DNA of 64,000 nt from contig JAEFAM010000002.1 of the NCBI GenBank assembly GCA_016287565.1, positions 7,648-71,647 on the forward strand, read 5' to 3'. Shown piece by piece: positions 5,793 through 44,640 of this stretch; the first letter of the stretch is position 1, and each line of letters begins with the position of its first letter. The stretch comes from Clostridia bacterium. Lineage in GTDB: Bacteria > Bacillota > Clostridia > UBA1212 > UBA1255. The notes below the pieces were generated by a model. It worked only from the letters and a program-made list of their open reading frames with translations. It was not told where the DNA came from and did not search any database. The position numbers were made by a program, and so were the translations under genes.

Positions 5793-6827
5793 TCAATAAT
5801 AGGGGCTGAAACCGCTGCCTCCCTCGGGAGCGCCGTTTTCGAATACCCTCTTGTTCAGTTCCTGAGCCGCGTTGTAGCCCATCATCTTCTGGCGGTTGTT
5901 CATGGTCGCCGCCTCGACTATCACTGCCAGATTGCGCCCCGGCATTACCGGTATGGTGACGCAGGGCACCTTGATGCCCAGTATCTCCGTGTAGGTGTCC
6001 TCGAGGCCTACGCGCTCGTATTCCTTGCCCTCCACCCATTTTTCAAGCTGGATCACCAGCTGGATGTTCTCCGTCATCTTGACCGCGCCCACGCCGTAGA
6101 GCCGCTTCACGTCGACGAATCCCACTCCCCGGATCTCGATCAGGTGGCGTATCACGTCGGGAGCGCTGCCTACCAGCGTCTTATGGGACACGCGGCGGAT
6201 CTCCACGATATCGTCCGCCACCAGCCTGTGGCCGCGCTTGATCAGCTCCAGCATGGTCTCGCTCTTGCCCACGCCGCTCTTGCCCCGGATCAGCACGCCT
6301 TCTCCGTATACTTCCACGAGGCCCGCGTGAACGGTCTTTCTTGGGGCAAGCTGCACGCAGAGGTATCTGTTTAGCTCGCTGTACAGCGCGGTGGTGGCAA
6401 TATCCGCTCCCAGCACCGGTATGCCGTGTTTTTCGCCCAGCGAAAGCATCTCCGGGAACGGTTCCAGGGACCGGGCAATTATCAGGCAGGGAAATCCCAT
6501 TTCGAACAGCTTAGCCAGCTTCTGCCTGCGCACGTCCTCGTCAAGGCTCTTCAGGTAGAGCATTTCGGAGTTCCCCATGAGCTGTATCCGGTCCCGGGTG
6601 AAATCTTCCGTGTAGCCGGATATCTCCAGCCCGGGCCTGTTGAGGTCGGGGGTAGATATCAGCACCTGAGAAGTCAGTTCTCCGCCGCAAAGGACGGTGA
6701 GCTGCATCTCGCTGATGATCTTGTCCAGGCTGACGCTGTAGGGCGCTTCCGAGAGCGCGCCTCCTTCGCCGCTGCCGTTATTGTCTTCGATATTGACGCT
6801 GCCGTCCATTTCCTTATCGGGGCTCAT
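5793..6827 (-). CDS. hprK: HPr kinase/phosphorylase
   Basis: Walker A GVLIRGKSGVGKSE and the HprK C-terminal signature LVADD...EIRGVG. Start chosen at ATG (MSPDKEM) rather than the longest ORF. The N-terminus is extended relative to the Bacillus enzyme. Confidence 0.8.
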   Translation of the reverse strand: MSPDKEMDGSVNIEDNNGSGEGGALSEAPYSVSLDKIISEMQLTVLCGGELTSQVLISTPDLNRPGLEISGYTEDFTRDRIQLMGNSEMLYLKSLDEDVRRQKLAKLFEMGFPCLIIARSLEPFPEMLSLGEKHGIPVLGADIATTALYSELNRYLCVQLAPRKTVHAGLVEVYGEGVLIRGKSGVGKSETMLELIKRGHRLVADDIVEIRRVSHKTLVGSAPDVIRHLIEIRGVGFVDVKRLYGVGAVKMTENIQLVIQLEKWVEGKEYERVGLEDTYTEILGIKVPCVTIPVMPGRNLAVIVEAATMNNRQKMMGYNAAQELNKRVFENGAPEGGSGFSPYY

Positions 6828-8845: not shown

Positions 8846-10507
8846 TTACCTGTTGATCATGAAAGCTCCCGCGGGGTTGCCCTCGCTGTTGGCCAGGTTG
8901 ATCTCCACGCCGAAGTAGTTCTCGGAAATGGCGTTGTAGGCCAGGCCCTTAAGTTCGTAAGAAGCTTTGACCTCGACCGTGTCCTTGCCGGTGATCTTGG
9001 CGGTGACTTCCTTCTTGTTGAGGGTGTCGTCCGCCACGAGGCCCAGGAAGCCCTTGACGCTGGAATCGCCGTCGATAGTCTTCAGCCCGTCGCCCACGTT
9101 CTTGAACTTCACGGTGGCGGTCTTGCCGTCGGAGCTGTAGGTGATGGATTCGATGATGGGGCCGGTGGCCTTTTCCATCGTCATGCCGCCTTCGCCGTTG
9201 ACCGCCATGGCGATCTTGGCGCCGCGGAGCGCCTGCTCGGCCTTGCAGTTGGGATGGAGGCTGTTCCAGTACGTCTTGTCCGCCCATACGTCGGAAGATA
9301 CGATCTGGTAGCTGTTGGGCAGCTTCGTGACGATCTCGCCCATCTTGGCCCTGATCTTGCCGATGTCCATGTAAGCCCACTGGGAAGCGCCGGTGGTGTT
9401 GGGATAGATGGAGGGGAACTCCACGAAATAAACCGCGAAGTCTTTATTGATGAGGTTGTGGGTGCCGCGCATGTAGTTCATAAGTTCGCAGAACGTCACC
9501 ACGTATTTGGCGGTGAGGGCCTCAGTGAAGTCGCTCTCGCCCTGGTACCAGATAATGCCGGCCATGGCCATGCGCTCGAAGGGGTACATATACTCGTTGT
9601 ACATATATCTGCCCGCGTCCGCGTTGACGCCGGAAGTGACGTAGTATTTCTTCTTGGAGTTGAAGGTGTCGGTCTTGCATTTCTCGGCCACTTCGTTGCT
9701 GACGAAAGCTCCGATGGGAAGGCCGTTGCCGTCGATCTCGATGACGCCTACGGGCACGCCGGTGGCTTTAACGTAATCGGCCGCGAACATATATCCGATG
9801 GCGGTGAAGGGATTGGCGACGGCGGTGGTGGCTTTTCTCCACTTGGAATTGTTGGCCACGTCCTTGTTCACGTCGGTGGTGCCTCTCTTGAGCTTGGTGG
9901 GAGCGCCGGCGGTGTTGTAGTGGAGCCTGATGGGAAGCTCCTTGTCGATGGTCTTCATGCCGTACTTTTCAGCGTCGTTTTTGTCAACGAACTGCCAGTG
10001 GTTGGCCATGCTGTACGCGCAGTTGGACTGGCCGATGCACATGTAAACGTCGCCCACGAGAATGTCTTCAAGGACAACTTCCTTGGTATCCGTGTAGATG
10101 CGCATGTTGTTGCCCGGTTCGGCGTTGGCAGCCAACTTCTTCTTGAAGGTCAGCACCCATTCTCCGTCAACTATCTCGGCTTCGGTGAACATGCCCATGA
10201 ACTCGCCGGAAACTTTTTTACCGTTCTCGCTCTCGTCTGCCCAGCCCCATACTCTGATGTGCTCTCCGCGCTGCACCACCATATCCTTGGTGAACGCCTT
10301 GGCAACGGTGAAGTCCGCGGCGTACTCCAGCGGCAGCGGATCGTCTATGCCTGTTTCGGGCACTTCCGTGGGAGCCTCTGTGGGTTCCTCGGTGGGTTCC
10401 GCAGGCTCGGTGTTCTTTGGCTCATCCGTATTGCCCGTGGAGCAGGCGGCAACGCCCAGCAGCATGGCGACGGCCAGCAGCATACTTAAGATCCTGATCT
10501 TTTTCAT
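8846..10507 (-). CDS. SASA/DUF303-family carbohydrate esterase (sialate-O-acetylesterase-like) lipoprotein
   Basis: Lipoprotein signal (LLGVAACS). GQSN block (CIGQSNCAYSM) and IIWYQGESD block typical of SGNH/SASA esterases. The start ATG overlaps the alr stop (ATGA). Confidence 0.65.
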   Translation of the reverse strand: MKKIRILSMLLAVAMLLGVAACSTGNTDEPKNTEPAEPTEEPTEAPTEVPETGIDDPLPLEYAADFTVAKAFTKDMVVQRGEHIRVWGWADESENGKKVSGEFMGMFTEAEIVDGEWVLTFKKKLAANAEPGNNMRIYTDTKEVVLEDILVGDVYMCIGQSNCAYSMANHWQFVDKNDAEKYGMKTIDKELPIRLHYNTAGAPTKLKRGTTDVNKDVANNSKWRKATTAVANPFTAIGYMFAADYVKATGVPVGVIEIDGNGLPIGAFVSNEVAEKCKTDTFNSKKKYYVTSGVNADAGRYMYNEYMYPFERMAMAGIIWYQGESDFTEALTAKYVVTFCELMNYMRGTHNLINKDFAVYFVEFPSIYPNTTGASQWAYMDIGKIRAKMGEIVTKLPNSYQIVSSDVWADKTYWNSLHPNCKAEQALRGAKIAMAVNGEGGMTMEKATGPIIESITYSSDGKTATVKFKNVGDGLKTIDGDSSVKGFLGLVADDTLNKKEVTAKITGKDTVEVKASYELKGLAYNAISENYFGVEINLANSEGNPAGAFMINR

Positions 10508-11724
10508 TGATTTCGACCTCCTAAAAACAGCAGAACGTTGGACACCTGTGCCTCCGCTCCGTCTTTTATAAACTTTCTGGGGATCCTTTTGCTTAATCCG
10601 CAGATTATTTCGTAATTTATGGTATTTTCCAGTTTCGCCAGTTCTTCGGGAGAAACGGCCTCGTCACCCTGGAAGCCGAAAAGCACCGCCTCGTCTCCGG
10701 CCTTTACGGTCTCGCCCCGGGCGGAAAGTTCCGTCACGTCCGCCAGGCACTGGTCCATGCACACCCGTCCGCGGATGGGCACCCTGGCGCCGTGGATCAG
10801 TATCTCCGCTCTGCCTCCCAGAGATCTGGAATAGCCGTCCGCGTATCCCACGGGCACGGTGGCGATCACCCTGGGCTCTTCGGTCATATAAGTGCAGCCG
10901 TAGCTCAGGAACGTTCCCGCAGGCACTTCCTTCACGGCGGTGATCTTCGCCTTAAAGGACATGGCGGGCCTCAGTTCGAATCCCGGATGCGCCGCCCGGA
11001 CTTCCTGACGGGACACTTCCGAAGGATACAGTCCGTACAATATTATCCCGGCCCTGACCGCGTCAAGATGCATCTCTGGGAACCTCAATATGGCGGCGCT
11101 GTTGGCCGCGTGCCTCAGGGGTATTTTAAGCCCCTTTGCCGCCAGCTCGTCGCACACCTTTGTAAATCCTTCGAACTGGCGCCTGGTATATCCCACGCCG
11201 CTGCCTTCGTCGGAAACAGCGAAGTGCGTGAATATGCCTTCTATTTCAAGATTCGGCAGGGCGGCAATCTCAAGTATGGTATCAACGGTGTCCGGGTCTT
11301 CGCTCCTGAATCCCACGCGGCCCATTCCGCTGTCGATCTTTATATGTACCTTCGCCTTTTTCCCTCGCCTTACCGCCGCGTCTGACACGCTTTTCGCCAT
11401 TTCGGAAGCGAATACGGTCTGAGTTACGGAATAGTCGATCAGTTCCTCCGCCCTTTCCGGCTCCGCGTCGCTTAAGATGAGTATGGGCGCTTCGATCCCG
11501 GCCAGACGGAGCTGCAGCGCCTCGTCGATCTGGGAGACCGCCAGCATGTCGATGCCGTTGTCCAGCAGGCACGCGGCAACTTCCGGCGCCCCGTGGCCGT
11601 AGGCGTCTGCTTTTACTACGCCTATGACGGCGGCTCCGGGGGCGGTGACCCTCCGAACCTCTTTTGCGTTGTGCGCTATGGCGTCAAGATCGATCTCGGC
11701 CCAGGCTCTCGTGTTGTCCAGCAT
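10504..11724 (-). CDS. alr: Alanine racemase
   Basis: PLP-lysine motif VVKADAYGHG, and the overall N-terminal barrel plus C-terminal domain pattern. Confidence 0.85.
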   Translation of the reverse strand: MLDNTRAWAEIDLDAIAHNAKEVRRVTAPGAAVIGVVKADAYGHGAPEVAACLLDNGIDMLAVSQIDEALQLRLAGIEAPILILSDAEPERAEELIDYSVTQTVFASEMAKSVSDAAVRRGKKAKVHIKIDSGMGRVGFRSEDPDTVDTILEIAALPNLEIEGIFTHFAVSDEGSGVGYTRRQFEGFTKVCDELAAKGLKIPLRHAANSAAILRFPEMHLDAVRAGIILYGLYPSEVSRQEVRAAHPGFELRPAMSFKAKITAVKEVPAGTFLSYGCTYMTEEPRVIATVPVGYADGYSRSLGGRAEILIHGARVPIRGRVCMDQCLADVTELSARGETVKAGDEAVLFGFQGDEAVSPEELAKLENTINYEIICGLSKRIPRKFIKDGAEAQVSNVLLFLGGRNQ

Positions 11725-12643: not shown

Positions 12644-12673
12644 TGGTCTCCCGGTCGTTGCCCCTGCCGCCGC

Positions 12674-13507
12674 TCAGTCCGTTTTGAAGTTTTTGTCGCG
12701 GTTCTTAAAATGCTTCACAATCATTTCCACTATCCCGCTTAAGACGGACAACGCAGCCAGCGCGATGATGACTATCATGATCACGCCGCCAGCGGAAGAA
12801 GTGTTGTTCTTGCCCTCTCCCTCCGGAACTTCGAACTTGATGACGTTGCCGTTGTACGTGGGCACCGGCGTGGCGTTCGGATCCCGCGTGACCTCCGGCG
12901 TCCCGGTCGCATCTGCGTCTTCCGTCGCTTCAGGGTCGATTTCGCCCTTCTCTTCCGGGTCGATCGCGCCCGCTTCTTCCGGGTCAATCGCGCCCGTCGC
13001 TTCCGGGTCCATCGCGCCCGTCTCTTCCAGGTCCATCGCACCCGTCGCTTCCGCCAGATCCGTCAATACGGTCTCCGCCTGCCCCGCCGCATCGAGCGCG
13101 GCAACGTCCGCCATCTCCGCCTCAGCGAGCATGGCAACGTCCGCCTTCTCCGCCTGCTCAGCCTCAGAGAGTGGGGCAACGTCCGCCTTCTCCGCCTCAG
13201 CGAGCATGGCAACGTCCGCCTTCTCCGCCTGCTCAGCCTCAGAGAGTGGGGCAACGTCCGCTATCTCCGCCTGCTCTGCCGCAGAGAGTGGGGCAACGTC
13301 CGCTATCTCCGCCTGCGGGATCTCGCCGGCCTCGGCAAATACAGGCGCGTGAGCGGCGGCGAGGCACAGCACGGCAATGACGATCAGCGCGGCAATAAAT
13401 GCCGCTTTCCTGCTGCCGCAATTTGCTGTTTTCCCGAACCAGCGGTGTTTCATAACAGGCACACACCCCCACGGTGGTATTGTACCATCGAAGGCGTTTT
13501 TTGGCAA
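12674..13507 (-). CDS. Secreted/membrane-anchored acidic tandem-repeat protein
   Basis: Signal-like hydrophobic segment (likely start MKHRWFGK at 13453). Repeats ADVAPLSEAEQAEK/ADVAMLAEAE and a C-terminal TM anchor. The repeats are also visible at the DNA level. Confidence 0.55.
   Translation of the reverse strand: MPKNAFDGTIPPWGCVPVMKHRWFGKTANCGSRKAAFIAALIVIAVLCLAAAHAPVFAEAGEIPQAEIADVAPLSAAEQAEIADVAPLSEAEQAEKADVAMLAEAEKADVAPLSEAEQAEKADVAMLAEAEMADVAALDAAGQAETVLTDLAEATGAMDLEETGAMDPEATGAIDPEEAGAIDPEEKGEIDPEATEDADATGTPEVTRDPNATPVPTYNGNVIKFEVPEGEGKNNTSSAGGVIMIVIIALAALSVLSGIVEMIVKHFKNRDKNFKTD
13100..13320. repeat. In-gene tandem DNA repeats (33 plus 42 bp compound unit) that encode the acidic peptide repeats
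   Basis: GCAACGTCCGCCTTCTCCGCCTCAGCGAGCATG alternating with GCAACGTCCGCCTTCTCCGCCTGCTCAGCCTCAGAGAGTGGG. Confidence 0.7.
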
Positions 13508-13539: not shown

Positions 13540-13815
13540 CTGTGCAAAGTGATCTTCGCCTGCGGCGAGTGATCTTCGGCCTGACGGCCGAGTGATATTG
13601 CGCGGGGCGCAGTGATATTCGCCATACGGCGAGTGGTGTTGCGCGGCGCGAGCAGCTAAATTCGACTTCGTCGAGCGAAATTGAACCCTGACTGTTTAGC
13701 GGGGCTTTTCAGGGTTCAGCTAAATGCGACTTCGTCGCGCTAAATTCGTGCTGTCACACGAGCTAAATTCCGCATTGCGAGCAGTGAAATTCGACTTCGT
13801 CGAGGAAAATTGATC
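13540..13815. repeat. Array of mini-hairpins separated by the conserved octamer GTGATATT/GCTAAATT (top-strand orientation)
   Basis: About 12 units of roughly 20 nt. Each is an 11-16 nt palindrome (for example CGCCTGCGGCG, TGCGCGGGGCGCA, CGACTTCGTCG) followed by GTGATCTT, GTGATATT, GCTAAATT or GTGAAATT. Confidence 0.8.
13681..13719. repeat. Conserved hairpin class 2 (TTGAACCCTGA-loop-TCAGGGTTCAG) followed by CTAAAT
   Basis: 10-bp stem with a 19-nt loop. The same stem with a different loop occurs at 21208..21245. Confidence 0.7.
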
Positions 13816-13885
13816 TTCGGTCGGAGGGATTGATCTCTTCCTTCGCTCATACCAAAGGCCTTGCTCTGTCTCCGAGAGGCAGATG

Positions 13886-14142
13886 AACGAAAAACGCCCA
13901 CATTTTACCGCTCCTTTCAAATTTCTGGGCGTTTTGAAGAAGGACGCTCTGTCTATTAGCTTTAAACGAGCGGAAAACGCCCACATTTTACCGTTTCTTT
14001 CGAATTTCCGGGCGTTTTGAAGAAGGTGGCGCTGCCTCTGAAGCTTGAAATGAGCGAGAAACGCCCACATTTTACCGTTTCTTTCGAATTTCTGGGCGTT
14101 TTGAAGAAGGTGGCGCTGCCTCTGAGCTTGAAACGAGCGATA
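13886..14142. repeat. Three tandem copies of an 83-bp unit, each with a 9-bp-stem hairpin AAACGCCCA-25 nt-TGGGCGTTT
   Basis: Unit starts at 13892, 13975 and 14058, nearly identical. The track ORF 13720..14190(-) is a translation artefact of this repeat. Confidence 0.8.
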
Positions 14143-14189
14143 ATATAGCTGGACCCTGACGTGCTCGAGCAAAAAGCCGGAAGGGTCCA

Positions 14190-14644
14190 ATTTAGCCGAA
14201 GCAGCAGGCTTCGATTTAGCTGTGAGCGCCAGCGAACAATTTAACTGAAGGCCGCAGGTTCCATTGTCTCTGAAAGCCTGCGGTCTTCAGTTTCACTCGC
14301 GCGCCAGCGCGAATTTAGCTCGGCCGTCAGGCCGAATTTAACTGCCGCAAAGAGGCAATTTAGCTTGACGAAGTCGAATTTAGCTGCTCGCCTCGCAAGC
14401 AATTTCGCTCGCGCGTCAGCGCGAACATCACTCCGCGAAGCGGAATATCACTTGCCCGCAGGGCAAATATCACTCGCGCGCCAGCGCGAATTTAGCTCGG
14501 CCGTCAGGCCGAATATCCCTCGCCGCAGGCGAATATCACTCGGCTCCAGTCTGACGTCAGGCCGAATATCCCTCGCCGCAGGCGAATATCACTCGGCTCC
14601 AGTCTGACGTCAGGCCGAATATCACCGCGGCTCCCACCTGCTCC
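14190..14644. repeat. Array of mini-hairpins with octamers AATTTAGC/AATATCAC (opposite orientation to 13540..13815), ending in 2.5 copies of a 59-bp unit
   Basis: Units such as CTCGCGCGCCAGCGCG-AATTTAGCT, CGGCCGTCAGGCCG-AATATCCCT and CGCCGCAGGCG-AATATCACT. The 59-bp unit contains the palindrome CTGACGTCAG. The array abuts the GH3 stop codon. Confidence 0.8.
14247..14288. repeat. Conserved hairpin class 1 (GAARRCCGCAGGYT-CCATTGTCTCTGAAA-AGCCTGCGGYYTTC)
   Basis: 14-bp stem. The loop is identical to the copy at 26787..26828 and differs by one nucleotide (CCATTGTCACTGAAA) from the copy at 24584..24625. Stem differences between copies are compensatory. Confidence 0.8.
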
Positions 14645-21122: not shown

Positions 21123-21205
21123 ATGACACCTCCGGAATGTATTTCGGTTTTTCGTTGGGTCAATTGTACCAAAAAAAGTGGTGGTTGTCCATCGGGAAAA
21201 GCGAA

Positions 21206-21325
21206 TGTTGAACCCTGATATGTTGTCAGAAAATTCAGGGTTCAGCTAAATTCGTCCTGACGAACGAGCGGAATTCGTCCTGGCGGGCGGGCGAAATTGC
21301 TCGCGTGGCGAGCGGCTCTTGTTTA
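21206..21325. repeat. Class-2 hairpin plus a short mini-hairpin/octamer array in the fucI upstream region
   Basis: TTGAACCCTGA-20 nt-TCAGGGTTCAG, then CTAAATT-CGTCCTGACGAACGA-GCGGAATT-CGTCCTGGCGGGCGGGCG-AAATTG-CTCGCGTGGCGAGCGG. Confidence 0.7.
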
Positions 21326-21517: not shown

Positions 21518-21724
21518 ATGATCAGGAAGATAGACGTGCCCGCAGAGGCCATGGTGGAATTAAAAAGACGCCGAGATCATAATAACCGGATCGATAATCT
21601 ACAGGATCAAAACGTGGATACCACCGTCATTCCGGAAGTATCCGATTCTGTTAAAAACCAGTTGAGAAAAGATTTTAAAAAGGACATGCAAGGATATGCG
21701 ATTTTTTGTCGTCACATTATTTGA
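21518..21724 (+). CDS. Small hypothetical protein (68 aa) in the low-GC leader of the sigma-factor operon
   Basis: ORF only. Weak RBS, no motif. Could be non-coding. Confidence 0.25.
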   Translation: MIRKIDVPAEAMVELKRRRDHNNRIDNLQDQNVDTTVIPEVSDSVKNQLRKDFKKDMQGYAIFCRHII

Positions 21725-21760
21725 AAGGGATCAGGAGACGAAATTATCCAGGGAGAAACA

Positions 21761-22345
21761 ATGACAGGCCTGACAAGTGATATTTACAACAACATAACTG
21801 ACGAAGAGATAATTGCCATGCTCGAGGGACGGGACGAAATGGCAATGGGATTACTGGAATCCAGATTCCGTAATCTTATACGAAGCACTTCTGTCCGGAT
21901 CCTCGGGAATGAGCAGGACGCGGAGGAGTGCGTCAATGATGTGCTGCTGAAGATCTGGAACAGTATTCCGCCGAACAAACCATCGAATTTAAAAGCATAC
22001 GTGGCTGTCGCGGCCAAAAACAACGCGATCGATCGTTATAAAGCGCAGCGGCGCAAGGGCCGGATCCCTCCGGAAAAACTGGAACCGCTGGAAACTGCAG
22101 ACAACATCGGAGTGTTAGATATTGACCGGGATGATAAAGAAACTGTTGCCGCGCTGATAGCCGATTATTTAAACGGAGTCAGCTCTGAAAAAAGAAAGTG
22201 CTTCATTGCCAAATTCTATTTCGGGGCAAAAGATTCCGAGATAGCAAGGAAAGCAGGAGTGCCTGTGGGGACTGTTTCATCGACATTGAGCAGGATGCGT
22301 AAGGAACTGATTAAAAAACTGAAAACGGAAGGAATAAGGTTATGA
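21761..22345 (+). CDS. ECF-subfamily RNA polymerase sigma-70 factor
   Basis: Region 2 (ECVNDVLLKIWNSI) and region 4 HTH (SEIARKAGVPVGTVSSTLSRMRKEL). GGGAGAAACA-ATG ribosome-binding site. Confidence 0.8.
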   Translation: MTGLTSDIYNNITDEEIIAMLEGRDEMAMGLLESRFRNLIRSTSVRILGNEQDAEECVNDVLLKIWNSIPPNKPSNLKAYVAVAAKNNAIDRYKAQRRKGRIPPEKLEPLETADNIGVLDIDRDDKETVAALIADYLNGVSSEKRKCFIAKFYFGAKDSEIARKAGVPVGTVSSTLSRMRKELIKKLKTEGIRL

Positions 22346-24375
22346 AAAACAAAAAGCTGAAAGAATATATGAAATATTTGCCTCAGGAGATGCTGTCTGA
22401 GGCCGAGGAATTTGTTCCGTCCGTCCCAGAAGTGAGTTCTTCATCCGCCGGCAGGGCGAAGAAGTTTTTTGGCTCGACCGCGTTCAGATTTGCTGTCGAA
22501 GCTTTGGTGGTCGCGGCTTCGCTGGCTGCAGGGATAATTATTGCTATCCGGTTAAGTAAACCCGACAGTCAGGATAAAGGAAACGAAACGACGATATCAG
22601 AGGGGACAGAAGCGCCGACGCAGGCCGGGCAGGTTACTGCTGCTCCGACGGAGATTCCGACGATGCTTCCGGCAACACCGGCTGAAACTACTGCCGCCAC
22701 GTCAACGACGACAGTGCCTCCTACCGCGACGCCGACGAAATTGCCTTCTTCGGAGACGCCCGTCGAGGTGGTACCCACTGCGACGTCAACTGTAACAACA
22801 CAGACGACTGTTCCGCCGACAGCGACACCGACAGCCGTACCTCCGACAGCGACATCAACCGCCGCACCGACTGCTTTGCCTCCTACAACTACGCCGACGA
22901 AAGCGCCTTATACCGCTGCTCCGACCGCAGTTCCGCCGACCGCGACCCCGACTGCCGCACCTCCGACGACGGCGCCTGCTACAGTACATCCGGACTGGTT
23001 TTCAGGACCTGAGGCAACGGTAAGGCCAGACCATATTGCCCCGGAAGGAGCAGCGGAATACATTATATTGCCGACGAAAAACACCAGATCGGAGTTGTTC
23101 CCGGATGTTCTTCCGGAATCAGTGAAGCTTGACGGTGACAAAGCATATTTCAACGTCCGCAGCAGGATCGAAACGGTCCTGATAGACGAAACCGGCATGA
23201 TGTACTTTTTAAAAGGCGAAATGTATATCGACCAGATATACCTTTGCGACGTAACGCGGAACGGAAACAGCATAATACTCACAGCGAAAAGCATACATTT
23301 CAGGCTGAAATGCACTTCAAATGAAGATTACAATGCGCTGGTGTTTACGGTAAAATACCAGGAAGACTCAGTGGGCAGTAACGTTCAATGTGTTAAAGAG
23401 TTACTTGCCGGAAAGCTATATTACGATTTCTCCGCAGGAAAATGGAATTCGCTGCTGCTCCCGGGACCGAACGTTGTAAACGAATTGACTCTGAACCTCG
23501 GCGGTACCGAGGGGTATCCTGCCGTAATCGACACCTCGAACGCATCAGGCGGTACATCCTCAATAACCAGCTTCCGTTATGAATTTGACGGTTCCGGAAA
23601 ACTCAGCAGTTATGCTAAAATTTTCGGAGCCTGCAGATATGAGCAATATTTTGAGAACGGGATACTTGTACGCGAATATACGGTGAACAGTTCAGACAGT
23701 TCGACTGAAAAAATATACAATCTGGAAGGGATCGACCTGTATACACGGATCATTAACGGAGACACCGAGACCGTCCGGGAACGGTACAAAGACCGTGCGG
23801 ATCTGGTTTATGAGACAGTCAAGATAAAGAAGAAGGAAAGTGATACCAGATCGACGTATACCGAAAATGTATATTGTTATAAAAACGAGAGCCGTACGGA
23901 AACGTTTCTGTACAAGAATACTGTGACAACGTATTATTCTAACGAATGGCAGACGGTTACAACTAAAACGTATCGTCCTGACGGCCAGGAGCTTAGCAGT
24001 ATTACGGATTTTGGCAACGGGTCGTGTTCCGAGATATTGTATGTGTATCGTGATTCCGGTGTGATCGCAGAAAAAACGACCATAATTACGGAAAACGGCC
24101 TGCGCAATCGGTATACTCTGCTAAGATATAACGAAAAAGGAAAAGCGATCTATTATTTTGATGAGCTTCGATATTCCGACGACGAATTGCACTACTCCGA
24201 AGATCACTATTATGATTCCGGTCGGGCAAGGATCGAAAGAAGATATGCGACCAACGGCGGAATGGATCCGAATGATCCTCCGTACAACTATTACCGTTAT
24301 TATGACGAGGCGGGCAATATAATCAGATCCGGCGTCGTTGCCTACGTCAATGGCGAGTGGATCGAGGATCCGTGA
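22342..24375 (+). CDS. Single-pass membrane protein co-transcribed with the ECF sigma (putative anti-sigma/sensor) with a Pro/Thr-rich linker and an extracytoplasmic YD-repeat (RHS-like) domain
   Basis: ATGA overlap with the sigma gene. One TM helix (FAVEALVVAASLAAGIIIAI). A PT-rich linker of about 170 aa (VPPTATPT repeats). C-terminal YD-type repeats (KTYRPDGQELS, HYYDSGRARIERRY, YRYYDEAGNIIRSG). The second half has lower GC. Confidence 0.65.
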   Translation: MKNKKLKEYMKYLPQEMLSEAEEFVPSVPEVSSSSAGRAKKFFGSTAFRFAVEALVVAASLAAGIIIAIRLSKPDSQDKGNETTISEGTEAPTQAGQVTAAPTEIPTMLPATPAETTAATSTTTVPPTATPTKLPSSETPVEVVPTATSTVTTQTTVPPTATPTAVPPTATSTAAPTALPPTTTPTKAPYTAAPTAVPPTATPTAAPPTTAPATVHPDWFSGPEATVRPDHIAPEGAAEYIILPTKNTRSELFPDVLPESVKLDGDKAYFNVRSRIETVLIDETGMMYFLKGEMYIDQIYLCDVTRNGNSIILTAKSIHFRLKCTSNEDYNALVFTVKYQEDSVGSNVQCVKELLAGKLYYDFSAGKWNSLLLPGPNVVNELTLNLGGTEGYPAVIDTSNASGGTSSITSFRYEFDGSGKLSSYAKIFGACRYEQYFENGILVREYTVNSSDSSTEKIYNLEGIDLYTRIINGDTETVRERYKDRADLVYETVKIKKKESDTRSTYTENVYCYKNESRTETFLYKNTVTTYYSNEWQTVTTKTYRPDGQELSSITDFGNGSCSEILYVYRDSGVIAEKTTIITENGLRNRYTLLRYNEKGKAIYYFDELRYSDDELHYSEDHYYDSGRARIERRYATNGGMDPNDPPYNYYRYYDEAGNIIRSGVVAYVNGEWIEDP

Positions 24376-24469: not shown

Positions 24470-24655
24470 ATGCGCGAAGGAAATATTTAGCCGCTCGCCA
24501 CGCGGGCAACATCACTCCGCGAAGCGGAATTTCGCTCGCGCCAAAGCGCGAATTTAGCTGGATCCGCAGGCTTCAATTTAGCTGAAAACCGCAGGCTCCA
24601 TTGTCACTGAAAGCCTGCGGTTTTCAATTTAGCTCGGCATAGAGGGCTATCACTT
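24470..24655. repeat. Mini-hairpin/octamer array plus a class-1 hairpin between convergent genes
   Basis: CCGCTCGCCACGCGGGC-AACATCACT-CCGCGAAGCGG-AATTTCGCT-CGCGCCAAAGCGCG-AATTTAGCT-GGATCCGCAGGCTTC-AATTTAGCT-[class-1 hairpin 24584..24625]-AATTTAGCT. Confidence 0.8.
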
Positions 24656-26329
24656 TTCCCTCTTGTCCTTCTCCCTGATCTCCACGCGGCGGATCTTGCC
24701 GCTGATGGTCTTGGGCAGCTCGTCGACGAATTCCACGACACGGGGGTACTTGTAAGGAGCGGTGGACTTTTTGACGTGGTTCTGCAGCTCCTTCTTAAGC
24801 TCGTCGGAAGCCGTGTAGCCCCTTGCCAGCACCACGGTGGCCTTGACCACCTGGCCCCTGAGTTCGTCGGGGACGCCGGTGATGGCGCATTCCAGCACCG
24901 CGGGGTGGGTCATCAGGGCGGATTCCACTTCGAAGGGGCCGATGCGGTAGCCGGAGCTCTTGATGACGTCGTCCTTGCGGCCAACGTACCAGAAATAGCC
25001 TTCCTCGTCGCGGTAGGCCAGGTCGCAGGTGTGATAATAGCCGTCGTGCCAGACTTCCTCGGTGAGTTCCTTGTCCTTGTAATAGCCCTTGAACATGCCG
25101 ACGGGGCGGCCTTTGGAGGTGTTGATCACGATCTCACCCACTTCGCCGGGATAGCAGGAACGCATATCGTTGTCGACGATATCCACGTCGTAGCAGGGGG
25201 AGGGTTTGCCCATGGAGCCGGGTTTTTTCTTCATCCAGGGGAATGTGCAAACGAGGGCAACGACTTCGGTCTGCCCGTAGCATTCCCGCATCTCGATGCC
25301 GGTGGCCGCCTTGATCTGGTTGAACACTTCCGGATTCAGCGCCTCTCCCGCCACGGTCAATTCCCGGAGCGACGACAGGTCGTAGCTCTTCATATCTTCC
25401 TTCATCATGAAGCGGTACATCGTTGGCGGCGAGCAGAAAGTGGTGAGTTTGTAGTCCTGCATCTTCCGGAGCAGTTTGTTGGGATCGAACTTGTCCATAT
25501 CGTACACGAAAATGGCGGTCTCCCCCAGCCATTGACCGTAAAGCTTGCCCCAGACGGCCTTTGCCCAACCCGTCTCCGCCACCGTCATATGAAGGCCGCC
25601 CTCTTTAACGCTGTGCCAGTAACCGGCGGTGATTATGTGGCCCAGAGGGTAGGCGAAATCGTGTATGACCATCTTGGGATAGCCGGAAGTGCCGGAAGTA
25701 AAATACAGGAGCATGGTGTCGTCGTTGTGCACCGCTTTCTCCCCCTCCGGCCTGGGGAAAACGTCGGAAGCGCTTTCCACGCCCTTGTCGAAATCCAGCC
25801 AGTCGCCTCCCGGGAACTCCCCGTGGCCGCCGGCGGACAATTTAAGCTTCAGCGTGGGCGAGGTCAATTGCGCCTCTTCCACCTGCTTGTAAAAGTCGTG
25901 GTCCGTGGTGGCGATGATCGCCTTCACGTCCGCCCTGTTGAACCTGTAATCCAGGTCCTTCGCCGTCAACAGGTGCGTTGCGGGCACGGCAACGGCTCCG
26001 ATCCTGTGAAGCCCCATCAGCGCGTACCAGAACTGGTAATGGCGCTTCAGCACCAGCACCACGCTGTCGCCCTTCCCGATGCTCAGGCTCGACAGATAAT
26101 TGGCCGCGCGCATCGACAGCTTCGACATCTCGCCAAACGTGAAAGTCCGCTCCGCGCCATGATCGTCGCACCAGACCATTGCCCTGCCGTCCGGATCCTT
26201 CTCCGCCAGCGCGTCCAGCACGTCGTATGCAAAATTAAAATCGTCTGGGACGTTGATCCGCAGATTCGCCTTCATATCCTCGTAAGACGTAAAATCCGCT
26301 CTGTTAACGTACTTCTCAAAAAATGCCAT
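24650..26329 (-). CDS. AMP-forming acyl-CoA synthetase (ACSM/medium-chain fatty-acid-CoA ligase-like)
   Basis: AMP-binding motif YFTSGTSGYPK, YGQTE, and the C-terminal KTISGKIRR lysine motif. Start at ATG 26329 with AGGTGG Shine-Dalgarno. Confidence 0.8.
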   Translation of the reverse strand: MAFFEKYVNRADFTSYEDMKANLRINVPDDFNFAYDVLDALAEKDPDGRAMVWCDDHGAERTFTFGEMSKLSMRAANYLSSLSIGKGDSVVLVLKRHYQFWYALMGLHRIGAVAVPATHLLTAKDLDYRFNRADVKAIIATTDHDFYKQVEEAQLTSPTLKLKLSAGGHGEFPGGDWLDFDKGVESASDVFPRPEGEKAVHNDDTMLLYFTSGTSGYPKMVIHDFAYPLGHIITAGYWHSVKEGGLHMTVAETGWAKAVWGKLYGQWLGETAIFVYDMDKFDPNKLLRKMQDYKLTTFCSPPTMYRFMMKEDMKSYDLSSLRELTVAGEALNPEVFNQIKAATGIEMRECYGQTEVVALVCTFPWMKKKPGSMGKPSPCYDVDIVDNDMRSCYPGEVGEIVINTSKGRPVGMFKGYYKDKELTEEVWHDGYYHTCDLAYRDEEGYFWYVGRKDDVIKSSGYRIGPFEVESALMTHPAVLECAITGVPDELRGQVVKATVVLARGYTASDELKKELQNHVKKSTAPYKYPRVVEFVDELPKTISGKIRRVEIREKDKREK

Positions 26330-26739
26330 CAGAACCACCTTCCATTCCTCGGAGTAAATATGAATCGGACGGAAGTTCCGGGGACAAAAAAACTCGTCTC
26401 AGAAACGAGACGAGGTCAATGACTTCGTTATACCACTCGGAATTCTGTCGGATTCGGTACGCCCCGGCCCTTTTCCTGCTGAGCCTCGCGCACTTAAATC
26501 TTCCGCCTGTCACGGGACGCCCCGGAGCCGCTTACCACCGTCTCCGGCTTCAGCCGCCCGGCTCAGGAGTGATCTGCTTCCGCCCTTCCTCACCGCATTG
26601 CACCAGACTGCGGCTCTCTATAGAGGACAATGGCGGCGCCCGTCTCCGTCAACGCCGTTACGCGAATTATACTCCTCGTTTCCCGGCGGCGCAAGTGGTT
26701 TTTTGCTCGGGACAATACGCGGCGCGCGGAAGGACATGG

Positions 26740-26856
26740 TGCGCATGGCGCGCAGTGATATTGCTCGCGTTGTGAGCAGCGAAATTGAAAACCGCAGGCT
26801 CCATTGTCTCTGAAAGCCTGCGGTTTTCAATTTCACTCGCGCGTCAGCGCGAACGC
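26740..26856. repeat. Class-1 hairpin flanked by inverted octamers, immediately downstream of trkH
   Basis: CAGTGATATTG...GCGAAATT-[GAAAACCGCAGGCT-CCATTGTCTCTGAAA-AGCCTGCGGTTTTC]-AATTTCACT-CGCGCGTCAGCGCG. On the minus strand the hairpin is followed by UUUUC, so it may also act as the trkAH terminator. Confidence 0.75.
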
Positions 26857-38626: not shown

Positions 38627-38749
38627 TACTCTTCTCCGATTTTAAAAACATTAAAAAAGCGATGGCATAAAACCACGGATAGGATTTTACCACATTCAGG
38701 GAGGTAAAACAACCCTTTTTTCAATTTGAAAAACCGGCAGATTTGTGCT

Positions 38750-39275
38750 AAATTTAGGGGCGGGGCGCAGTGATATTCTGCTTCGCAGAGTGATATTGCG
38801 CGGGGCGCAGTGATATTGTGCTTCGCACAGCTAAATTACTCGCTTGCGCTCGCAGCTAAATTGCGTGCAGGGCACGCAGCTAAATCGAAGCCGTCCGGCT
38901 TCGGCTAAATTGACCTTCGGTCAGCTAAGCTCGGTTGCGGCGAGTGATATTGCGCGAAGCGCAGTGATATTCTGCTTCGCAGAGTGATATTGCGCGGGGC
39001 GCAGTGATATTCTGCTTCGCAGAGTGATATTGCGCGGGGCACAGTGATATTGTGCTTCGCACAGCTAAATTACTCGCTTGCGCTCGCAGCTAAATTGCGT
39101 GCAGGGCAAATTAAGCTGTTCGCGCCAGCGAACGATATCACTCGGCGAAGCCGAACATCACTCGCACGCAAGTGCGAATATCACTGCGAGTGTTAACGAG
39201 CAATATCACTTGGCGTAGCCGAACATCACTCGCACGCCGGTGCGAATATCACTGCTCATACCAGCGAGCAACAGG
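38750..39275. repeat. Large mini-hairpin/octamer array that switches orientation near 39115 (GTGATATT/GCTAAATT units, then GATATCACT/GAACATCACT units)
   Basis: Units of about 20 nt: TGCGCGGGGCGCA-GTGATATT, CTGCTTCGCAG-A-GTGATATT, GTGCTTCGCAC-AGCTAAATT and so on. A 150-bp block (38760-38910) is duplicated at 38950-39110. The right arm reads CGGCGAAGCCG-AACATCACT, CGCACGCAAGTGCG-AATATCACT. Confidence 0.8.
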
Positions 39276-39288
39276 AGGCGCATGATAA

Positions 39289-39948
39289 TTGGAGCCGATC
39301 TGCTTTTCGAATAGAGATCTTGAGAGCATAGAACGCTCCGCGGCGCCTGGTGATTCGGGCGCCGAAGGGCTGCTTATTGCCGTTTTGGATAACGTGAAGC
39401 AGAAGATCCGCTCCGGCTCCCCTTTCGAGGAGGAGCCCCATATATTGCTGCGGGAGACCGGCGGGAAAGTCTCGCTGTATACAAATTATTTCCTCCGGAA
39501 TCAGGCTGCAGGCGGAGGCTTTGCGGACCTGGTCTTTTCTGATGAGTTTCTTGCCGGACTGGCGGAAGAGATATGCGACCGTTCGTTGACGGAACGGGAG
39601 CCGGAGCAGGGCGCAGGAGCGGGAACTGCAGAAGGAGAGCTGCCGGACGAAGATATTGCCGCATACGCGGGAAGGATTGCCGCAAAAGTGGCGGAAAAAG
39701 AGCGTGAGCAGGAAGCCGCGGAGAGCGCCGGAGGTTTGAGCCGGACGGGCCGCAATATAATGCTCAGGATGATACATTTTTGCGCCGGGAGCGGCGGAAG
39801 AGGCGATAAAAAAGGAAAGCTCCTTTCGAAGCTTTCCGTTAACGTTATTGACATGGCCGTGTCCGGATGTTCCGGCGCCCGGTCGAAGGAAGATCTGTCA
39901 GTGCTGGACGCCGCGGGTCATTTTCTCGGCATCGTCACCCGTTCATAA
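39289..39948 (+). CDS. Hypothetical protein (Ala/Glu/Gly-rich)
   Basis: ORF only. The only start in frame is TTG. No motif. Low-complexity middle region. Confidence 0.3.
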   Translation: MEPICFSNRDLESIERSAAPGDSGAEGLLIAVLDNVKQKIRSGSPFEEEPHILLRETGGKVSLYTNYFLRNQAAGGGFADLVFSDEFLAGLAEEICDRSLTEREPEQGAGAGTAEGELPDEDIAAYAGRIAAKVAEKEREQEAAESAGGLSRTGRNIMLRMIHFCAGSGGRGDKKGKLLSKLSVNVIDMAVSGCSGARSKEDLSVLDAAGHFLGIVTRS

Positions 39949-44169: not shown

Positions 44170-44640
44170 CCTGTTGTTAGTGGGAAACGGGAAATGGCAA
44201 GTGGCAAATGGCAAGTGGGAAATGGAAAATGGCAAATGGCAAGTGGGAAATGGAAAATTATATTTTCCTCATTTTCAATCTGCACTTCTCGCTTTGCGTT
44301 TTTCAATTTCCGATTTGCAATTTCCAATTTGCAATTCTCAACTGGCAAGTGGGAAATGGCAAGTGGCAAATGGCAAATGGGAAATGATAATATCCTTTTC
44401 TCCTTTTCGATTTTCAACTATTCACTTGCAATTTGCAATTTCCAATTTGCAATTTTCTATCTTCCCCTTTTAATTTGCAATTTGCAATTTCCAATTTGCA
44501 ATTTTCAATTTGCAATTTCCAATTGTCACTTCGCAACTTTTAATTTGCAATTTGCCATTTGCAATTTGCAATTTTCAATTTGCAATTCTCCATTTGCCAT
44601 TTGCCATTTGCCATTTGCAATTTGCAATTTGCAACTAATC
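44170..44640. repeat. 470-bp intergenic block of heptanucleotide tandem repeats G[CG]AA[AG]TG alternating with complementary-orientation blocks CAATTT[GC]/CATTTGC
   Basis: Block 44175-44265 is (GCAAGTG/GCAAATG/GGAAATG/GAAAATG)n. Block 44300-44335 is (CAATTTC/CAATTTG)n. Block 44336-44385 is again (GSAARTG)n. Block 44420-44640 is (CAATTTG/CCATTTG)n. The track ORFs here (44025..44417, 44158..44679, 44174..44473, 44559..44771) are repeat translations. Confidence 0.85.

Follow-up and report, generated by a model that had tools for sequence, protein, structure and literature searches.

The closest described counterpart of the hairpin arrays considered here is Gut-1 (Rfam RF01706), which Weinberg et al. 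reported in 2010: from human-gut metagenomes they proposed a 77-nt small RNA with three hairpins and no known function, which they rated as an RNA on the basis of covariation (PMC2864571). Tandem short GC-rich hairpins with GUGAAAU-like linkers are common to Gut-1 and to the present arrays. Nevertheless, Gut-1 was described as a three-hairpin RNA of the human gut, whereas at this locus it corresponds to a slice of far longer arrays in a rumen Clostridia-like organism, and neither the hairpin that is the subject of this report (class 2) nor the linker GCTAAAT is present in the Gut-1 seed alignment or its flanks, in which GAACCCUG, CAGGGUUC, GCUAAAU and AUUUAGC are all lacking. Judged on sequence, class 2 is thus a lineage-specific extra module outside the Gut-1 family consensus, and a new module variant of a known, uncharacterised motif. 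The second point of comparison is the REP/BIME/REPIN group of elements, high-copy short palindromes that are intergenic only and often lie right past stop codons, as is found here, and that form mosaic clusters with conserved linker motifs, inverted arrangements and strain variation. The differences are as follows: in REP elements the stem sequence is conserved and a GTAG stands at the 5' end, whereas the linkers here are GTGATAT, GCTAAAT and GCGAAAT and only the long modules are stem-conserved; REP units alternate in orientation within a cluster, whereas the units here run head-to-tail within an arm and are joined by a 7-mer linker; and REP elements are linked to RAYT transposases, whereas no RAYT gene was seen in the ~120 kb considered here. 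Finally, the BOX elements of Streptococcus pneumoniae and the STAR and MIRU-type elements resemble the present arrays in being intergenic and modular, with internal units that vary in number and a predicted stable secondary structure. The BOX modules A, B and C, however, each have a set sequence of 45-60 nt where the present arrays have palindromes of 13-19 nt, and they have no sequence similarity to the modules described below.

The DNA analysed is a window of 64,000 nucleotides from a Clostridia bacterium. A rumen Clostridia-like Firmicute of 56% GC is indicated by the closest named homologs of fucI, which belong to 'Clostridia bacterium' MAGs, by a T-box leader and by genes of the HPr kinase and DnaB_2/DnaI types; near-identical contigs are present in NCBI metagenome assemblies (e.g. 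JAEEGI010000398.1), and relatives were found in cattle and ruminant gut metagenomes. The 121 modules parsed from the window and three related contigs share one grammar, in which the array unit consists of a 7-nt linker (GTGATAT, GCTAAAT, GCGAAAT or a close variant) and a palindrome whose first base is T and whose last base is A, repeated with a period of 20-25 nt. In most modules the palindrome is 13-19 nt in length (chiefly 13, 15 or 16), and in a few it is long, at 36-44 nt. Conservation of the linkers is far above that of the intervening short stems, which vary freely. Given that every class-2 copy lies in register between two linkers, class 2 is one of the long module types, another being the class-1 hairpin TGAAAACCGCAGGC…GCCTGCGGTTTTCA that had been noted earlier at this locus. 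The original prediction presented class 2 as an independent second element beside the arrays; this separation was not borne out, and the class-2 hairpin is very probably a 'long module' of a modular tandem array of the Gut-1 type.

Overall, 188 modules are distributed over 11 islands in ~120 kb, nine of them two-armed and two of them single arms, and none of the modules lies inside a gene. The islands sit at gene ends; those of the window are listed in Table 1. A two-armed island is composed of an arm with top-strand linkers, a centre and an arm with bottom-strand linkers, and both arms point inward in all nine cases. The gene context of the islands is convergent in contigs L008 and L014, tandem for the 13.5-14.6 kb island of the window and for the intervals from TrkH to the AMP-binding gene and from the AMP-binding gene to fucI in L023, and divergent on one side for the 38.7 kb island of the window. 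The centre holds one to ~8 copies of an 84-nt unit containing a hairpin AAAACGCCCA…TGGGCGTTTT, a long palindrome, or nothing. The number of 84-nt units was three in the window, four in L003 and ~8 in L023 (16920-17560), and both orientations of the unit are seen at island centres. Just before the 84-nt units, arms have the motif RGGNRGATTTGATYT in common at their inner ends (window 13826-13845, L008 ~903-915, L010 ~10655-10670); this motif may represent a conserved module that terminates an arm. A 'zipper', with linkers of one arm pairing to those of the other across the island, was considered and rejected, as neither arm lengths nor the order of linker types is mirrored.

Table 1. Coordinates of class-2 modules, array arms and associated features in the window
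Feature	Position	Strand	Remarks
Left arm, 13.5-14.6 kb island	13549..13803	+	Tandem linker + palindrome units; 11 modules
Class-2 long module c1	13682..13718	+	Seventh module of the 11-module left arm, 13.5-14.6 kb island; 63.5 bits
Island centre	13888..14140	.	Three 84-nt units, each with a AAAACGCCCA…TGGGCGTTTT hairpin resembling a bidirectional terminator
Right arm, 13.5-14.6 kb island	14143..14625	-	20 modules; starts 20 nt past the GH3 stop codon
Class-2 long module c3	14150..14189	-	Innermost (last) module of the right arm; compensatory A-T -> G-C; 52.0 bits
Sigma-70-like promoter match for fucI	21163..21191	-	TGGACA-17-TG-TACAAT; consensus match only
Class-2 long module c2	21209..21244	+	First of a 4-module arm pointing away from fucI; 55.3 bits
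Three short modules 3' of c2	21245..21314	+	Linkers GCTAAAT, GCGGAAT, GCGAAAT; T-rich tail after the last hairpin
Single arm directly past the AMP-binding gene stop codon	24485..24633	-	Class-1 hairpin at 24583-24626
Mini-island past the TrkH stop codon	26740..26853	-	Class-1 hairpin 26786-26829, exactly at the flip in linker orientation
Left arm, 38.7-39.3 kb island	38747..39108	+	17 modules; Gut-1 matches of 54.2 and 51.5 bits
Right arm, 38.7-39.3 kb island	39117..39252	-	Directly past the stop codon of ORF 39256-39777(-)

The two class-2 copies on which the original prediction was based were recovered with the exact pattern TTGAACCCTGA-N10-30-TCAGGGTTCA, which matches the window at 13681-13718 (c1) and 21208-21244 (c2), both on the plus strand; no match is expected by chance, and none was given by any of 100 dinucleotide-preserving shuffles. 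The shared stem and the trailing CTAAAT also proved correct: both copies have a stem of 10 Watson-Crick pairs with a terminal T·G and are followed directly by GCTAAAT, and the sequences on their 5' sides are similar (AGCGAAAT and AGCGAATG, with AGCGAA- in common). The loops, given at first as 19-20 nt, are corrected to an unpaired interior of 17 nt in c1 and 16 nt in c2. As RNA, c2 folds at -19.4 kcal/mol (z = -5.4), and a terminator-like match lies at the end of its arm (21297-21315); c1 sits at the point where linkers of the GTGATAT type change to linkers of the GCTAAAT type. A third, diverged copy, c3, reads GCTAAAT-TGGACCCT…AGGGTCCA-GCTATAT on the minus strand. The placement of class 2 at the edge of the arrays holds for c2, the first of four modules, and for c3, the last of its arm, but not for c1 within its arm of 11; across the family the place of a copy within the arm may be first, middle or last.

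A covariance model (R1), built from an alignment (A1) of 12 copies from the window, L008, L010 and L014, gives class-2 copies 52-78 bits and finds only c1, c2 and c3 in the window, where the best other match is a different hairpin class at 39.3 bits. No further copy was found by R1 in the 16 kb of the contig beyond the window. A metagenome scan with the pattern TAGCTGRACCCT-N10-34-AGGGTYCAA, which spans all three window copies, returned four genuine matches in JAEEG* contigs, equivalent to three distinct loci, as L009 repeats L008; L008, L010 and L014 belong to the same NCBI metagenome series as the window. Reading of these three loci identified variants outside the scan pattern, namely TGAACACTGA…TCAGTGTTCA (two copies), TGAACCCTGCC…GGCAGGGTTCA followed by GCGAAAT (two copies) and two further eroded copies. 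Together with three copies in L023, a sister strain, the nine copies in the same-series contigs and the three in the window bring the family to 15 members, so that the possibility of only two copies existing falls away and a recurrent hairpin class with a conserved stem is confirmed. The stem sequence TGAACCCT/AGGGTTCA is kept in nine of the 15. Since two of the L023 copies have GTGATAT linkers on their flanks, class 2 is not bound to the GCTAAAT linker type. Six further metagenome matches to the class-2 pattern (Ga0* contigs) have no array context and were rejected as chance, as were two matches without linker context, in Muribaculaceae and Oscillospiraceae MAGs, from a scan of a collection of one genome per species in which the source genome is absent.

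Comparison with the Gut-1 covariance model, for which the gathering score is 50 bits, identified matches in the window at 66.1 bits (14397-14475) and, within the arm at 38747-39108, at 54.2 and 51.5 bits. A match at 41.1 bits (13610-13686), below the threshold, ends five bases into the 5' arm of module c1, and the mini-arm of c2 scores only 22.4 bits, also below the threshold. Among the related contigs, L008 matches at 537-612 with 69.1 bits and L010 at 10127-10202 with 66.2 bits; in L023, where the highest score is 75.5 bits, two matches (9184-9284 at 60.6 bits and 6700-6800 at 59.8 bits) span class-2 copies as an insertion. The arrays around all three window copies thus match the model, several of them above the gathering score, and by score arrays that contain or adjoin class-2 copies belong to Gut-1. 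No family besides Gut-1 matched in an Rfam scan of the c2 region.

The class-2 stem is maintained by compensatory changes. In A1, 86% of the cells of a 12-pair stem are paired, a level that none of 500 shuffles reached, and pairing falls to 44-48% when the 3' partner is slid by one column. Changes on both sides were identified at four pairs (9/48, 11/46, 14/43 and 21/39), and one pair forms a stepwise series, with A-T in the canonical copies, G-C in c3 of the window and, between the two, G·T in the c3 ortholog of L023. The module is 36-40 nt in length (36-37 nt in 13 of 15 copies) with an interior of 16-24 nt, and the interiors have GTT(T)A…GAAAT in common and pair into an inner helix. Class 2 is a near-palindrome with a possible stem of 10-16 bp and a 5-nt apical loop, the longest helix being a 16-bp stem under the loop AAACG in L008a and L023a. 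The earlier impression that the loops are unrelated arose because the interiors of c1 and c2 are the two most diverged of the family; the interiors are in fact homologous.

Given the identity of class 2 as an array module, the explanation judged best as a whole, at about even confidence, is that of a REP/BIME-like hairpin-forming module, in which this identity is combined with a mechanism at the level of DNA. The mechanistic part, that the islands behave as REP/BIME-type repetitive palindromic DNA, is put forward tentatively, with the balance slightly towards doubt. Under this mechanism each module would fold on itself in single-stranded or negatively supercoiled DNA, the arrays would grow and shrink through block duplication of units, and the complementarity of the stem arms would be maintained throughout. 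The long modules, with stems conserved in sequence, would be the likeliest parts for recognition by a protein or for the seeding of an arm. On this view the form that matters would be the hairpin in DNA, and a protein partner is likewise putative: among the Pfam lists and the genes of the ~120 kb of annotated context there is no gene of the HUH/RAYT type and no other candidate partner.

That the module probably acts at the DNA level is suggested by the loops of the short modules. The linker strand has cT(N1-2)Cg, and the opposite strand accordingly cG(N1-2)Ag, in 50 (56%) of 89 unique short modules with loops of 3-4 nt; in only four is the cG..Ag form on the linker strand itself. This set was drawn from window positions 13549-14625, 21245-21314, 24485-24633, 26740-26853 and 38747-39252 and from L008, L010, L014 and L023, and human-gut Gut-1 seeds share both the loop bias and the reversal of orientation inside a single intergenic region. 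GCGNAGC and GCGNNAGC are known as extraordinarily stable DNA mini-hairpins for which the C-G closing pair matters (PMC13037366, PMC3201870), and the short modules resemble d(GCGNAGC) and d(GCGNNAGC) in that, on the strand opposite the linker, 56% of them have a 3-4 nt loop of the G…A type closed by a C-G pair. Given that most module tetraloops (GTCA, GCCA, GTTA) are not GNRA, this loop rule suits DNA better than RNA. However, the known natural cases of such mini-hairpins are single hairpins at sites of single-strand replication or priming in phages and plasmids, whereas here there are chromosomal arrays of dozens of units, and the apical loop of class 2 (AAACG or AAGCG) does not follow the rule. 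The bias could also have been inherited from a few ancestral units instead of having been selected.

The main alternative to a DNA-level role is that transcription of the upstream gene runs on into the arrays as its 3' flank, where a cluster of stem-loops would end transcription, block 3' exonucleases, or both. This is a serious possibility, although an unlikely one. It would account for the position of about 11 arms, which start 0-20 nt past the stop codon of a co-oriented gene with terminator-like hairpins thereafter, and for the class-2 module of L014 whose first three bases are the stop codon TGA. It also agrees with the proposal that hairpins clustered at spacings under 15 nt, no more than 80 nt from a stop codon, act as termination units (PMC8355165), with the classification of Gut-1 as an RNA by its discoverers (PMC2864571) and with the G·T intermediate in the ortholog of c3, which is on the linker strand. 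About half of the arms, however, are partner arms with neither a co-oriented gene upstream nor a clear promoter. Furthermore, the linker-strand loops would as RNA be cUNCg and cUNNCg, which are not known as stabilising RNA loops, while their complements are known stabilising DNA loops. Nor is G·U in excess over A·C: in the short modules there are 12 G·T vs 13 A·C mismatches, and in class 2 the numbers are 13 vs 9, which gives no sign of an RNA-specific wobble tolerance and leaves the mismatch test uninformative on RNA versus DNA. The class-2 hairpin itself is called as an intrinsic terminator in none of its copies, each of which is followed by a linker (GCTAAAT, GCGAAAT or GTGATAT) and not by a U-tract.

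Two further observations stand against transcription as a 3' flank. The first is that arrays in other taxa lie downstream of strong intrinsic terminators: this arrangement is seen in some human-gut Gut-1 seeds and in viral contig L054. Small mirror islands with GTGATAT or GCTAAAT linkers occur in three lower-GC IMG/VR viral contigs, L027 (1477-1600), L049 (10245-10330) and L054 (260-330). In L049 and L054 the array lies directly past an intrinsic terminator, which in L054 is preceded by a tRNA gene, and the remaining viral array is directly past a phage-like gene. None of the three holds a class-2 module. These were the only true hairpin arrays among the viral contigs matched by linker-triplet scans, most matches being ordinary coding sequence or AT-rich tandem repeats; a BLAST of the array against plasmids gave no match. 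The second is that array content is not conserved between strains of ~95% identity.

This second observation comes from L023, a rumen strain whose flanking genes are 93-96% identical (~95%) to those of the window and which was found through a 99% homolog of fucI. Islands are present at the same sites in both strains and differ in content and size: the island past TrkH, for example, spans ~114 bp in the window (26740-26853) vs ~750 bp in L023 (6143-6895), where it contains 84-nt units and a class-2 copy. Only c3 has an ortholog in L023, while a counterpart of c1 is absent. At the c2 site, the two strains align up to window position 21205, three bases short of the hairpin, and in place of c2 L023 has GTGATAT units in the same orientation; the small ORF, the sigma-factor gene and the gene for a 677-aa protein that follow in the window are also missing, with an island centre of 84-nt units there instead. 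The arrays thus turn over quickly between strains that are ~95% identical. Arrays are entirely lacking at the loci of two fucI homologs with 93% and 91% identity, which for that reason provide no test of conservation; the 99% homolog in L023 served instead. A syntenic relative at the level of the family (58-92% protein identity) also has no arrays at these sites; this relative, L018, has terminator-like repeats of ~84 nt at 2600-2850, with a different sequence.

Such turnover also weighs against the arrays being small RNAs in their own right that would sequester a protein or scaffold it, with the single-stranded linkers as binding sites and the class-2 stem as a second site. This is improbable, even though it would explain why the linkers are far better conserved than the stems and why the class-2 stem is conserved in sequence as well as in pairing, and even though an arm may possess its own promoter, as in the match TTGAAA-17-TAAATT before 38747. 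Mirror-image arms would yield two different RNAs, class-2 copies take no fixed place in the arm, and there is neither a candidate binding protein nor a conserved frame of promoter and terminator. As an observation apart, the GCTAAATT linkers in general provide a -10-like hexamer.

The comparison with L023 bears most directly on the position of c2 between fucI and the operon of the small ORF and sigma factor, which had been noted as the 5' region of both the fucI operon and the sigma operon. A gene-specific cis-regulator of either, whether an operator, an attenuator or a promoter element, is very improbable. The hairpin does lie 17 nt upstream of the promoter-like -35 hexamer for fucI, and its loop with the following linker gives a sigma-70-like promoter match on the plus strand (TTGTCA, 18 nt, TAAATT; 21223-21252). 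However, given that the fucI promoter match stands between the hairpin and the gene, c2 is upstream of that promoter match and outside the fucI leader, and L023 retains the fucI promoter region up to window position 21205 in the absence of c2 and of any sigma operon. The other 14 copies lie beside unrelated genes, mostly past stop codons, the spacing from arm to arm is variable, and there is no U-tract after the hairpin. A transcription-factor operator agrees no better with an interior that varies between 16 and 24 nt. In annotation of the window, the hairpin should therefore not be taken as a regulator of the fucose/arabinofuranosidase or sigma operon. TTGAAC was also considered as a -35 element and rejected, as its spacing to a -10-like hexamer fits in c2 only. 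The operon on the far side of c2 (21518-24375, plus strand) encodes a sigma factor of the ECF type together with the small ORF, of 68 aa, and the 677-aa protein; for this last there are only three matches among 5.8 billion proteins.

The weakest alternative, a guide-like or CRISPR-like element whose variable loop specifies a target, was prompted by two window copies with the same stem and different loops and is exceedingly unlikely, since the loops are homologous and internally paired across the family, match only themselves at up to 4 mismatches in 101 kb of the organism's DNA (the check that had been proposed for a guide or target-site function), and stand in arrays whose 'spacers' are palindromes with a period of 20-25 nt and whose annotated context holds no cas-like or other effector genes; a scan of viral contigs with the class-2 pattern gave no match.

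Returning to the REP/BIME-like reading, it may be extended to Gut-1 as a whole, and this extension is distinctly unlikely as it stands: Gut-1-type arrays would not be small RNAs, but a hitherto unrecognised class of chromosomal and phage-borne arrays of DNA mini-hairpins (cGNAg/cGNNAg), arranged as mirror islands at gene ends, with class-2-like sites of recognition or seeding for a candidate hairpin-specific enzyme, together forming a REP/RAYT-like system in gut and rumen Firmicutes. Rfam has listed Gut-1 since 2010 as a small RNA found only in the gut, and at this locus it is seen as a slice of long, mirror-oriented arrays with several types of module. If the DNA-level reading is true, Gut-1 would have to be reclassified as a repetitive DNA element, the Firmicute counterpart of REP/BIME, and the arrays could help to tell strains apart in metagenomes of rumen and gut and offer a test case for the origin and spread of hairpin repeats.

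The lineage is unusually rich in intergenic tandem repeats. Tracts of heptamer repeats lie between genes both in the window (44181-44634; TGGCAAA / TTGCAAT) and in the family-level relative L018 (2880-3050 and 5110-5260; AAGTGGC / AAGTGAT / AAGTTGA). Repeats also occur within a gene of the window (12673-13452, minus strand), which has internal tandem repeats of 24, 33, 42 and 75 nt and no Pfam match, and the length of which differs by 75 nt among near-identical strains, the product having 259 aa in L003 but 234 aa in both L004 and L005. Upstream of the AMP-binding gene (24650-26338), a match to the T-box leader was identified at 26403-26661 on the minus strand, with 66.5 bits against a gathering score of 93 (E = 3e-14); this leader has a terminator at its end and is conserved in both L023 and L018.
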